Source of the DNA: a virus
Taxonomy: Duplodnaviria > Caudoviricetes
Strand: one strand, 5' to 3'
Virus record (IMG/VR): IMGVR_UViG_3300020045_006781
Coordinates: 1 to 33,949 of that record
Length of the DNA: 33,949 nucleotides
Positions 3,262 to 32,732 of the stretch are shown piece after piece. Below the pieces are notes generated by a model, which had not been told where the DNA came from, made no database searches, and saw nothing but the letters and a program-made list of their open reading frames with translations. A program made the position numbers and the translations under genes. Numbering within the stretch: the stretch's first letter is position 1; each line of letters starts with the position of its first letter.

Positions 3262-3300
3262 GTATATTTTGGTTTAGGTGGGTAATTGGGATTTAAAACG

Positions 3301-3334
3301 GCCCTTGGACTGGTAACCCAAGGGCTTATTTTTT
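3301..3334 (+). terminator. Intrinsic terminator/hairpin after the capsid cluster
   Basis: GCCCTTGG-actggtaac-CCAAGGGC followed by TTATTTTTT. Confidence 0.7.
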
Positions 3335-18784: not shown

Positions 18785-18878
18785 TTATCCACAATTGAAT
18801 TTTAAAATGTGGATAAGTATGCTTTAAAAATAAAGTTATCCACAATCAATCCACATACGGTGGTTTTGGTTTGGATAA
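18785..18878. promoter_or_regulatory. DnaA-box cluster (candidate origin or DnaA-controlled promoter)
   Basis: Perfect TTATCCACA at 18785-93 (+), 18808-16 (-) and 18836-44 (+); degenerate copies at 18847-55 and 18870-78. Confidence 0.8.
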
Positions 18879-18902
18879 ACGAATAGAATGCTTTTACATT
18901 TG
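18870..18902 (+). promoter_or_regulatory. Bacteroidota housekeeping-type promoter
   Basis: TTTG (18870-73), 21-nt spacer, TACATTTG (18895-902). Confidence 0.65.
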
Positions 18903-18905
18903 GAA

Positions 18906-19284
18906 ATCGGGGTGCAGTCAATTAATTTTGATTCCGATAACGAAAGGTATCAAGAACCCTTGTTAGAAAAGAATGCACCTCTTTTCTCTCAGGGGTTTCT
19001 CTTTTTACGCTGACGTTGTAATTCGGTGGGGTGTAAAATTGAATGAAGTCTGAACCACGGGGTGTAACATATCAGACATTGTAGCCTTAAGGAGAGAAGC
19101 ATGTTACCACGGGGGCCGATTCCCCAAGAGTATTTCTCCAGACCAACAGACACGGTGCTCATGTTGGGACTTTCGGGACGGGACTCATCCAGTCAAGCAA
19201 GTGAGGAAGACAGATGGGATAAATCTGCCTTTCTCTAACAGAAAACAGGATCTAAACCAGTAAGCAATTGTTATTCTTTAGTAT
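18906..19284 (+). ncRNA. Structured leader/attenuator RNA (c4/CI-like architecture) upstream of the replication genes
   Basis: Terminator-like hairpin at 18953-19006 whose loop TGCACC is complementary to GGTGCA (18911) and GGTGTA (19030, 19061); further hairpins downstream; no convincing ORF. Confidence 0.5.
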
Positions 19285-22138: not shown

Positions 22139-23193
22139 TGGCAAGTAGTAAAATAATCAAACCCGAACCACCTAAGATCATCACTGACCTCACAAGCTCT
22201 TACATTCCGCTGGATGTAAGCGCAGCCATCGATCAGCATGGAGAGATCGTGCAGCCTGGGGAGTCTTCCGGTATCTCTGAGTTGGATAAGTACTTCAAAT
22301 GGATGCGTGGATTCGTGAGTGGATGGTATGGCTGGGCGAATGCTGGTAAAGGTGTGTTTACTGATTACATGATGGTTGTGAAGGCTCTCCGCAGCGGATG
22401 GAAGTTCTGTCTTTACAAGCCGGAGGATATGGATACGGTGGTTACTGATGGAAAGGTAACTATCAAGTCCAACCGGTTTTACTACAACCTTGCGTGGACA
22501 CTTACTGGTAAAACATGGAGTGCTGACTACGCGAAAAGGAATAAAGTGCCGGCAATGACTATTGATGAGTTGATGGATGCTCTTGATTTCATTACTGCTC
22601 ACTTTTTTGTAATTCATCCAAAGGACAGGAGGTTCAATGCGTTGATGGATGAATCGATGTTCATGTACGAGAAGTTTGGAGTTGATGGATTTATGTGGGA
22701 TCCATGGAATGCTGTGAAGTTACCACGTACTGCAGGGATGCGCGATGATGAGCTTTATGTGGATGCTTTTATGAATATAAAGGAAGCCGCTCTGCTTACG
22801 AATTCTTCATGGAACATCATCACTCACCCAAAGTCTCAGGGTGAAGTGAGGAATAAAGACGGGAGTTATAAAGTCGTTACGCAGCATTTGGTTTTGGGTG
22901 GAGCGGCCTGGGATATGAAGATGGATACTCAGTATAGCGTATACCGGCAGAATGCACACAATGATCCTGATGATCCATGGATGGAATTGTACAACTTGAA
23001 GCAGAAGCAGAAGGAGATTGTTGGCGCGAAGAAGGGGGTGTATAGTAAGATAGAATTCGATGAAACGCGCAGGCAGTACTATTTCAATAACATCAACCCG
23101 ATAACTGGAGAGCCGAAAGGATACGAGAGTGATGTGGATATCTTTGCGAGTAAGAAAGATGTAAAGCCAACAGATCAAGAATTACCATTTTAA
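22135..23193 (+). CDS. SF4 (DnaB/T7 gp4/Twinkle-like) helicase ATPase domain
   Basis: SGISELD, Walker A-like GWANAGKG, WDPWN, IITHPK and GGAAW...D motifs. Confidence 0.75.
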   Translation: MMASSKIIKPEPPKIITDLTSSYIPLDVSAAIDQHGEIVQPGESSGISELDKYFKWMRGFVSGWYGWANAGKGVFTDYMMVVKALRSGWKFCLYKPEDMDTVVTDGKVTIKSNRFYYNLAWTLTGKTWSADYAKRNKVPAMTIDELMDALDFITAHFFVIHPKDRRFNALMDESMFMYEKFGVDGFMWDPWNAVKLPRTAGMRDDELYVDAFMNIKEAALLTNSSWNIITHPKSQGEVRNKDGSYKVVTQHLVLGGAAWDMKMDTQYSVYRQNAHNDPDDPWMELYNLKQKQKEIVGAKKGVYSKIEFDETRRQYYFNNINPITGEPKGYESDVDIFASKKDVKPTDQELPF

Positions 23194-30627: not shown

Positions 30628-30765
30628 GTTGATGTGGCGGAATTGGTAGACGCTGAGAAGTATGATCTTCAAGAAACAGACATTTAAGAGAGGTACTTGT
30701 AGTCGATGCCACCTGTAAGAACGCATAGAACAACTCTCATTCAGGTTCGAATCCTGACATCAACA
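30628..30765 (+). tRNA. tRNA-like RNA (Leu-type D arm) with greatly enlarged anticodon region; anticodon not assignable
   Basis: Acceptor stem GTTGATG/CATCAAC, D arm TGGCGGAATTGGTAGACGC, T arm TCAGG-TTCGAAT-CCTGA, discriminator A. 86 nt lie between the D and T arms. No encoded CCA. Confidence 0.75.
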
Positions 30766-30873
30766 CTAAAAAGAGTCTTAGTAATTTTAAATAAATTAAC
30801 CATGGGGTGGAAAAATAAGTTTAGAATATGTCCAGGCTCTTTTTTAAAAACATTGCCCAGACGGGGTGATTAA

Positions 30874-31129: not shown

Positions 31130-31283
31130 TAATGTCATATCGGTAACCGGCAGACTCCACACTTAAACCATTACCGCAAAGAAGTTGAAGCTGAAGGATA
31201 GACACGGTGGGGACATCAATGAGTAGCCAGAGCATTTAAGAGTAAGAGAATTCCCACGCAAAATCGAATAACTGAAAAAGACA

Positions 31284-31559
31284 ATGGCAAAATTCAAGGA
31301 CAAAATCGCAGATTCACGGAAGGACTCAATAGCCCTGATTATAATACTTCTACTTTTGATTATAGCCATCTCAACTTCATTCATTGTACCAGGTAATCCA
31401 CAATACACAGTGACTATCCATGATGGATGTAATCAGAAAGTCTTCTATAACTGCACGCAGGCTTTCACAGAAGCTAAGGGAACTACTTTAATGTTCCCGG
31501 ACGGATCAGAGCACCACTACTCACAATCGGTGCAGATACGCATTGTAAAGCACCACTAA
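31284..31559 (+). CDS. Small single-TM protein
   Basis: IALIIILLLLIIAIS TM; followed by a terminator. Confidence 0.55.
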   Translation: MAKFKDKIADSRKDSIALIIILLLLIIAISTSFIVPGNPQYTVTIHDGCNQKVFYNCTQAFTEAKGTTLMFPDGSEHHYSQSVQIRIVKHH

Positions 31560-31885: not shown

Positions 31886-31919
31886 CTATTTGCGTTTTAA
31901 AAAGAAAATAGTACCTTTG
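31886..31919 (+). promoter_or_regulatory. Consensus Bacteroidota promoter overlapped by an operator copy
   Basis: CTATTTGCGTTTTAAAAAGAAAATAG followed by a perfect TACCTTTG (-7 TAnnTTTG). Confidence 0.8.
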
Positions 31920-31956
31920 AACTGTCGAAAGAATTAAAACAAAAACTATCAAAGTC

Positions 31957-32028
31957 ATGAAAAAAGTAATCGCAATCTTCGCCCTGGTTATCGCAGCGTA
32001 CAACGTTGTTTCAATGATCATTCTTTAA
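31957..32028 (+). CDS. 23-aa hydrophobic peptide (not in ORF track)
   Basis: MKKVIAIFALVIAAYNVVSMIIL*, preceded by the AAAAACTATCAA leader. Confidence 0.6.
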   Translation: MKKVIAIFALVIAAYNVVSMIIL

Positions 32029-32057
32029 TAAGTCACTCACCAAAAACTATCAATAAC

Positions 32058-32198
32058 ATGAAAACACAAAACACACTTTCTTTTAAAATCGCAGTAGCGG
32101 TTTCGTACACAATAGCAATCGTTTTGCTTGCTGGAATTGTTTACTTCGCTTGGAAGGTATCGGGCGGGGTTAATGCTGACCAACTTCTTTCAATCTAA
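32058..32198 (+). CDS. 46-aa single-TM peptide (not in ORF track)
   Basis: MKTQNTLSFKIAVAVSYTIAIVLLAGIVYFAWKVSGGVNADQLLSI*, same leader motif. Confidence 0.65.
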   Translation: MKTQNTLSFKIAVAVSYTIAIVLLAGIVYFAWKVSGGVNADQLLSI

Positions 32199-32229
32199 AA
32201 TCTGTCTATCTATTTAAAAACTATCAATT

Positions 32230-32628
32230 ATGAGCACTACAATCGAAAAACAAGAAAACCAAAAAGAGGCAATCGCATATCTACGCAAGACATTGAAGCC
32301 AGGCGCAAAAGTTTATACTATTTGTCGCCATGTTTCATCCAGCGGTATGAGTAGGTCAATCTCCGTTTTAATATCAACTAAAGACGGTATCCAGTCTCTC
32401 GATTGGTACGTTGCTAATGCGTTGGATTATAAAAGAGACGATAAGCATCAAGGTGCTATCAAAATTGGCGGGTGCGGTATGGATATGGGCTTCGCTCTGG
32501 TTTACAATCTTGGTCGTAAATTATACCCTGACGGCTTTAAACTTCCAAAAGGCAAGTTTGGCCGTAATGGTGACAAATCAGGATTTGATAAGGATGGGGG
32601 ATATTCTTTAGATCAAAATTGGCTATAA
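32230..32628 (+). CDS. Phage hypothetical protein (RHVSSSGMSR/GCGMDMGF motifs)
   Basis: Same leader motif; protein motifs recalled from phage early-region hypotheticals. Confidence 0.75.
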   Translation: MSTTIEKQENQKEAIAYLRKTLKPGAKVYTICRHVSSSGMSRSISVLISTKDGIQSLDWYVANALDYKRDDKHQGAIKIGGCGMDMGFALVYNLGRKLYPDGFKLPKGKFGRNGDKSGFDKDGGYSLDQNWL

Positions 32629-32633
32629 AAATT

Positions 32634-32697
32634 CCTTCCTGTTTAGGAAGGTAAAGCGGGTGCGGTTTATCTGATAGTTTTCCGCCCCGCTTGTTTT
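32634..32697 (+). ncRNA. Double-hairpin RNA with loop antisense to the AAAACTATCA leader motif
   Basis: CCTTCCT-gttt-AGGAAGG, then AAGCGGG-T-GCGG-[tttatcTGATAGTTTT]-CCGC-CCCGCTT. Confidence 0.6.
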
Positions 32698-32732
32698 AAA
32701 AACTGTCATAATCATTTCAACGCGCAAACTAT

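Follow-up and report, generated by a model that had tools for sequence, protein, structure and literature searches.

A hairpin with a loop complementary to the tagged leaders of three putative early genes in a Bacteroidota-type phage, and its homologue in an unrelated phage

The window analysed here is a whole virus record of 33,949 bases (59% complete), and it carries behind three small genes a hairpin whose loop displays the exact complement of a ten-base tag present in the leaders of all three. We consider this hairpin to be a real element and likely a regulator, which probably times the shut-off of the putative early genes in front of it. The main evidence for a real RNA element, and for its ability to act in trans, comes from another phage record, G016, where a homologous hairpin forms a stand-alone promoter-terminator unit.

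The capsid protein of the window has matches of about 30% to those of Cellulophaga phiSM-type and Flavobacterium FCV-type phages, and the leaders of the window are A-rich and without Shine-Dalgarno boxes. Together with the presence of Bacteroidota promoter boxes, these features point to a Bacteroidota host. Close relatives of the window were found neither by protein nor by DNA searches. ORF 32733, ORF 30048 and the ERF gene had no viral relatives, the sole protein match of ORF 32733 being itself. No prophage was found in a capsid search of genome contigs, and BLAST against cultured phages, run for the region, for each of the two hairpins and for leader 3, gave chance matches only. Integrase and repressor were without a match among the window proteins scanned (19 with Pfam, 12 and 50 with PHROGs) in this 59% complete record. 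An immunity role, one of the functions first proposed for the hairpin, is speculation since nothing in the window points to lysogeny.

The three genes are preceded by one of the three window sites that hold both boxes of a Bacteroidota promoter (Table 1), and this site fits the consensus TTTG / TAHHTTTG as given in the available part of the Flavobacterium johnsoniae study (PMC6847099). The predicted RNA start lies about 15 bases ahead of the first tag. We regard the genes as early because of this host-type promoter and because small genes without known function follow it. The predicted peptides of ORF1 and ORF2 have the small size and hydrophobicity (2.6 and 2.4, respectively) expected of the products of type I toxin mRNAs. 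ORF3 is a mobile cargo gene for which the ESM Atlas gave no usable match. In a single low-depth contig of a relative, a copy of the early promoter region follows ORF 33579 (33773 joined to 31884), and in another low-depth relative contig the promoter is joined straight to the tag ahead of a different gene (31945 to 32214). These contigs weakly suggest that the early cassettes have been shuffled.

Table 1. Positions of the promoter, leader tags, genes and hairpins at the early region of the window.
Feature	Position	Strand	Remarks
Bacteroidota primary-sigma promoter, TTTG-N19-TACCTTTG	31889..31919	+	boxes 31889-92 and 31912-19; predicted start ~31925
Leader tag 1 (AAAAACTATCAA)	31941..31952	+	10-mer core at -15..-6 of ATG 31957
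ORF1, 23-aa hydrophobic peptide	31957..32028	+	19-residue mean hydropathy 2.6; no Pfam/PHROG match
Leader tag 2	32042..32053	+	core at -15..-6 of ATG 32058
ORF2, 46-aa peptide with one hydrophobic segment (2.4)	32058..32198	+	no family match
Leader tag 3	32216..32227	+	core at -13..-4 of ATG 32230
ORF3, 132 aa, phrog_12365 (unknown function)	32230..32628	+	widespread cargo gene in many phages
Hairpin 1, 7 bp, 4-nt loop	32634..32651	+	predicted fold; missing from the G016 copy
Hairpin 2, 11-bp GC-rich stem with one bulge, 16-nt loop 32666-81, UUGUUUU	32654..32697	+	predicted intrinsic terminator and regulatory RNA
Antisense seed TGATAGTTTT	32672..32681	+	exact complement of the three tags, inside the hairpin 2 loop
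Fourth tag copy, one mismatch	32695..32708	+	13/14 identical to leader 3; -34..-25 of ATG 32733

The exact 10-mer AAAACTATCA occurs at 31942, 32043 and 32217 on the plus strand, each time before an ATG, and its complement at 32672-81; the coordinates given in the original prediction are correct. The 10-mer and its complement together have exactly these four copies in the record. AAAAACTATCAA is the sole 12-mer common to at least three of the 70 called leaders of the window. The 8-mer core of the tag was absent from all 720 leaders in 14 records not selected for the tag and therefore it is not a generic leader word. The tags supply A-12 and A-13 relative to the start codons. Initiation in F. 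johnsoniae is promoted by A-3, A-6, A-12 and A-13, according to the accessible text of PMC6847099, and Shine-Dalgarno sequestration in Bacteroidota ribosomes is described in the available part of PMC7797042.

Behind ORF3 the predicted folds bear out the double hairpin (32634-51 and 32654-92) that had been proposed to expose the complement in its loop, with an energy of -28.8 kcal/mol, a z-score of -4.2 and none of 200 shuffles equally stable. The stem of hairpin 2 contains nine G-C pairs among its 11 bp and is followed by UUGUUUU, as in an intrinsic terminator, while its 16-nt loop lies outside the 3-8 nt of the terminator scan rule, so that the scan omits it. It is the most stable among the 19 wide-loop intergenic hairpins of the window. 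Loop 32666-81 is open in the centroid fold, and the three tagged leaders are the top three of 70 by duplex energy with it, at about -10 kcal/mol. This 10-bp duplex is short and AU-rich, and opening of the tags or of the loop is predicted to cost 0.3-1.2 kcal/mol. No separate promoter was found upstream of the window hairpin. One contig (depth 3.6) across the hairpin has eight listed substitutions and one deletion at 32592-32641 and none listed at 32642-32706; it is given little weight because the list lacks two of its changes and because other runs, too, show an invariant downstream block.

Chance was estimated over the 70 called leaders and 19 stable wide-loop intergenic hairpins of the window. 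A 10-nt complement of at least three window leaders arose in 148 of 200,000 loop shuffles, and such a match was reached by none of the 322 wide-loop hairpins taken from a further 14 phage records of Bacteroidota type. With 19 such loops in the window, the chance becomes roughly 1% per genome, which is insufficient alone in a large scan, and an independent case was therefore sought. In our assessment, the copy in G016 settles what the window-only chance figure cannot. Stable hairpins with U-rich loops and a 9-nt complement to three low-complexity leaders each were also seen in two other records (G004, L260:4309 (+) and G010, L262:9222 (+)), where the matches may be due to chance.

The record G016 was retrieved via the 17-mer of leader 3 alone, which occurs at 39 loci in viral contigs; eight records were taken from these loci because they had additional copies of the tag or of its antisense. 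The G016 hairpin, with the loop TTTACCTGATAGTT, was flagged by an unbiased scan of loops against leaders. A covariance model made from the window sequence alone gave this hairpin 37.1 bits (E 1.2e-7 over 805 kb), the next best score being 18.5 bits, and the model had a match in one of 63 virus records. All 23 countable stem cells of the window/G016 stem pair, with two double (compensatory) changes and one single change, and on two sequences this stem covariation is not significant (122/500 shuffles). The covariation of loop and leaders expected across related phages was not observed, since the seed core is identical in the window and G016 and no reciprocal change has occurred. A second model, built from both sequences, was run on 1.13 Mb and on 48 records and added no further member.

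The G016 hairpin is intergenic and has a TTTG-N20-TAAATTTG box of its own about 20 bases upstream (position 23002, minus). It ends in a U-run, giving a predicted RNA of about 65 nt. Nine starts in G016 are tagged, eight of them on the strand opposite the hairpin and four at most 60 nt from a -7 box. Among its 69 called leaders, the top seven by duplex energy are all tagged, the seventh tying with an untagged leader, and the first of them is the helicase leader, to which the hairpin has an exact 13-nt match. The head protein of G016 belongs to phrog_11589, a family other than that of the window, and its best cultured match is the crAss-like Azobacteroides phage ProJPt-Bp1. The window and G016 share only two distant proteins (33% and 26%).

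We consider it moderately probable that the hairpin forms the end of the early message and that initiation is blocked by pairing of its loop with the tags, chiefly in trans through accumulation of the stable 3' end. The components of the first step are visible in the sequence as promoter boxes, three tags, a hairpin with the exact 10-nt complement and a U-tract. Host RNA polymerase would produce from them an RNA of about 770 nt, from ~31925 to ~32697, with partial read-through into ORF 32733. Open tags and loop are then predicted to pair at about -10 kcal/mol and to cover A-12/A-13, the positions which Bacteroidota ribosomes use in place of a Shine-Dalgarno box. Since the G016 hairpin is a separate promoter-to-terminator unit, action in trans seems plausible for the window as well, and the stable 3' hairpin would accumulate, either attached to the full-length RNA or set free by decay, and silence new early messages. 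The outcome would be a protein-free negative-feedback timer for the early genes, among them the two for small hydrophobic peptides. The silencing of leaders by a hairpin RNA, as originally predicted, is in this way backed by the promoter-terminator homologue and by the tagged top leaders of G016, and the control of read-through that was coupled to it is not supported.

The same complementarity could act purely in cis, the 3' loop folding back on the leaders of its own message so that only nascent transcripts are translated, as for hok, and no diffusible RNA is made. A single transcript of 770 nt is predicted to hold both the loop and the tags, the products of ORF1 and ORF2 are short and hydrophobic, a look-alike in record G020 is operon-internal too, and the full-length hok mRNA is kept silent by pairing of its 5' and 3' UTRs according to the available text of PMC9841398. 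However, a single loop binds one of the three tags at once, and the G016 homologue, having its own promoter and lying on the strand opposite to eight of nine tagged starts, would be unable to reach these by cis pairing; we therefore regard a cis-only action as unlikely. The motif might instead be bound by a protein, either as a DNA operator in either orientation or as an RNA repressor site, the copy in the loop being a site or decoy and not a seed. The tag recurs in a further five phage records, of which two lack an antisense copy, four of the G016 tags lie close behind promoters, and 32672 and 32699 form an inverted pair, all of which would suit a protein site. Against it, both phages place the inverted copy exactly in the loop of a stem with compensatory changes, before a U-tract, and in G016 this copy also follows a promoter; moreover, an RNA-binding protein would require the sense word and not its complement, and no repressor match exists among the scanned proteins. 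A protein site thus appears quite improbable.

It could also be argued that an ordinary terminator stands beside strong A-rich leaders which spread by local duplication and gene shuffling, with complementarity as a by-product of U-rich loops facing A-rich leaders. The tags supply A-12/A-13, which along with A-3 and A-6 favour initiation in the available account of F. johnsoniae (PMC6847099). In single low-depth contigs the tag is followed by another gene and preceded by other upstream DNA, the chance of about 1% per genome has to be set against the many genomes scanned, and low-complexity matches of 8-9 nt are present in the comparison genomes. Such a by-product, however, would explain neither why an unrelated phage, chosen by the tag alone, has a homologous hairpin carrying the same loop nor why that hairpin has its own promoter. 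The summed frequency with which a permuted 8-mer lies in a loop among the five multi-tag records is 0.036, and a 16-nt loop, overlooked by the scan rule, is unusual in a plain terminator. On balance this origin of the match is hard to credit, and regulation by pairing of loop and tags remains our preferred reading.

The G-U-compatible copy of the tag that had been noted downstream, AAAACTGTCA at 32699-708, is present and can pair with the loop over 10 bp with one G-U (duplex -9.9 kcal/mol). It is likely a decayed fourth leader, present in read-through RNA alone. In an attenuator, this copy or the leaders would switch the hairpin and set read-through, on which ORF 32733, having no consensus promoter of its own, would depend. 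The copy, however, lies 3' of the U-tract and is transcribed only by a polymerase that has already passed the terminator, a fold involving this copy is 8.4 kcal/mol worse (-10.9 versus -19.3 kcal/mol), and G016 has no counterpart of it. Read-through control by an attenuator is therefore very improbable, and at most the 32699 copy might mask the loop in read-through RNA.

Five of the fetched records have at least three tagged starts (G015, G016, G017, G018 and G020). G015 and G018 are counted as one lineage as they have the same first gene, and the four tag-bearing lineages besides the window comprise one with a clear homologue, two with suggestive look-alikes and one with none. In G017 a 12-nt tag complement is located in a loop immediately after a tRNA-Asn gene, and its stem is weak (z -1.4; 16.8 bits, E 0.59) and fails the -7 kcal filter. 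In G020 the window element recurs between two tagged genes as three exactly matching blocks (11, 9 and 10 nt, order kept). The block chain scores 39, of which 9 come from the selecting tag, whereas the runner-up in 1.54 Mb reaches 31 and the controls reach 30; half of the seed is within a small stem and the top-ranked leaders are untagged. Both are weaker, suggestive look-alikes. No antisense copy was found in G018 (complete, six tagged starts) or G015 (an 11-kb fragment with four). The tag can thus exist without an antisense RNA, as in the complete G018 with its six tags and no hairpin. A G-U variant of the loop in G018 was rejected, being apparently intragenic and weakly folded.

Wider searches for the arrangement covered several patterns. 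The hairpin pattern gave 40 matches in viral contigs, none of the 40 with a sense tag within 1.5 kb, and these were rejected as chance; the double-leader pattern gave 10 matches, none with the anatomy of the window. Among genome contigs the loop pattern had two matches, one from an archaeon and one from Lachnospiraceae, which were also taken as chance. Homologues of ORF3 were collected from 80 viral and 80 metagenome loci, making 122 distinct contexts including the window. Leader-to-downstream complementarity in these equalled the reversed control, and none except the window has both the tag and the loop match. The covariance model found nothing in 100 ORF3-homologue loci. Separately, CAAACTAATT occurs seven times in a run of small genes in another Bacteroidota-type phage (G001:C1:30589-32597, L001), a complete record in which no exact antisense of this seven-copy tag was found.

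The CI RNA of P4 is a comparable phage antisense RNA, and both the c4 and CI RNAs are processed from a precursor and confer immunity. The window hairpin is similar to them in that its loop, according to the predicted fold and the exact match, displays the complement of a translation start region. Loop-displayed sequences of the c4 RNA of P1/P7 pair near the ribosome-binding region of a phage mRNA and block its translation, as described in the available part of PMC12197685. In comparison to c4, whose sites are on one antirepressor message, the window hairpin has one loop for a tag present on three to nine genes, the window leaders are of the Bacteroidota type without Shine-Dalgarno boxes and there is no sign of lysogeny. 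Rfam gave no relevant match at E<=1 for the window or at E<=5 around the G016 copy, and ORF1-3 have no match to an antirepressor in this 59% complete record. The hairpin is therefore not filed as c4.

FopS of Bacteroides blocks mRNA translation by pairing near the start codon, as far as the accessible text of PMC11697453 describes it. The window hairpin resembles FopS and GibS of Bacteroides thetaiotaomicron in the presumed trans pairing beside start codons in a phylum without Shine-Dalgarno boxes and in the use of one seed for several targets, and the promoter-driven and 3'-UTR-derived members reported for FopS in the same partial text seem to have their counterparts in the hairpins of G016 and the window (PMC11697453). 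FopS and GibS, however, are host chromosomal, act on carbohydrate genes and have a 5' seed, whereas the window hairpin is phage-borne, with a seed in a terminator loop directed at phage early genes. In the tac/fbi pairing of hok mRNA, as given in the available part of PMC9841398, the 3' end of a message likewise pairs with its 5' region and stops translation of a small peptide. The window differs from hok in having three identical targets and a stand-alone homologue in G016, and no minus-strand -7 box was found between 30047 and the window end that could serve a cis-antisense antitoxin of the hok type. CisR of Vibrio cholerae, a 3'-UTR-derived sRNA, likewise originates at the 3' end of a message and has a phage mRNA as its pairing partner, but it is host-encoded and Hfq-assisted, judging from the part of PMC13250501 that is available, whereas the window hairpin is phage-encoded and aimed at its own operon.

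A still tentative and rather doubtful extension is that the ten-base early-leader tag and the ~45-base terminator hairpin reading it make up a portable two-part RNA circuit of Bacteroidota phages, which moves between unrelated lineages, sits at an operon 3' end or as a free-standing gene and could silence co-infecting tagged phages. Silencing across phages is conceivable because the tag is common to several of them. If true, the RNA of one phage could shut the early genes of co-infecting phages that are tagged and lack the RNA, such as G018, and would thus mediate inter-phage exclusion without any protein. Early-gene shut-off in Bacteroidota phages is largely unknown, and their hosts offer no Shine-Dalgarno box to occlude. 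A timer made of no more than a 45-base hairpin and a 10-base tag would need no protein, and it could serve as a compact translational switch in Flavobacterium or Bacteroides. Its position at an operon end in the window and as a separate unit in G016 suggests how small RNAs may arise and move. In a literature search over titles and abstract openings, with subscription papers mostly outside its reach, no description of such an RNA in Bacteroidota phages was found; the mode of action would be of a known, c4- or FopS-like kind and the hairpin itself has no Rfam family.

The same relation of loop and target had been suggested for two other loci of the window. At 3296-3326 (+), a terminator-like hairpin follows the head-gene block, and its loop ACTGGTAAC at 3301 matches GTTACCA in three of 70 window leaders (2677, 19559 and 26821; the first and last share 13 bases), as compared to 0 of 1,221 leaders elsewhere and 1 of 300 shuffles. 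The hairpin is kept with its loop in three related contigs of one lineage (L125-L127), and GTTACCA is absent from the 26 leaders of the longest related contig (a 17-kb fragment), the orthologue of gene 2677 included. The suggestion did not hold at 18953, where the loop matches no start-codon leader and pairs over 8 bp with 18909-16, likely the 5' end of the same RNA. This locus (18895-19007, +) has a Bacteroidota promoter at 18895 followed by a ~95-nt non-coding RNA (z -4.1) with a terminator-like hairpin end, for which Rfam gave nothing; a pseudoknot or leader switch is possible.

Other features were observed at three places in the window. Three DnaA-box-like 9-mers at 18785, 18808 and 18836 lie in a gene-free gap (18785-18844) that is possibly a host-type replication origin. 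A tRNA-like element at 30628-30768 (+) has a perfect 7-bp acceptor stem, a Leu-type D arm and a T arm, with about 75 extra bases replacing the anticodon loop and a variable loop that is almost absent. It was missed by ARAGORN and Rfam and had no full-length match in cultured phages. A contig of run X4 matches its D and T arms with 75 different letters between them, hinting at a family of such elements. The gene-free stretch 31135-31270 (+) contains the short complementary blocks CGGTAA/TTACCG and CTCCAC/GTGGGG and has no stable nested fold (z 0.75). An identical 188-nt contig in run X4 covers 31160-31347.
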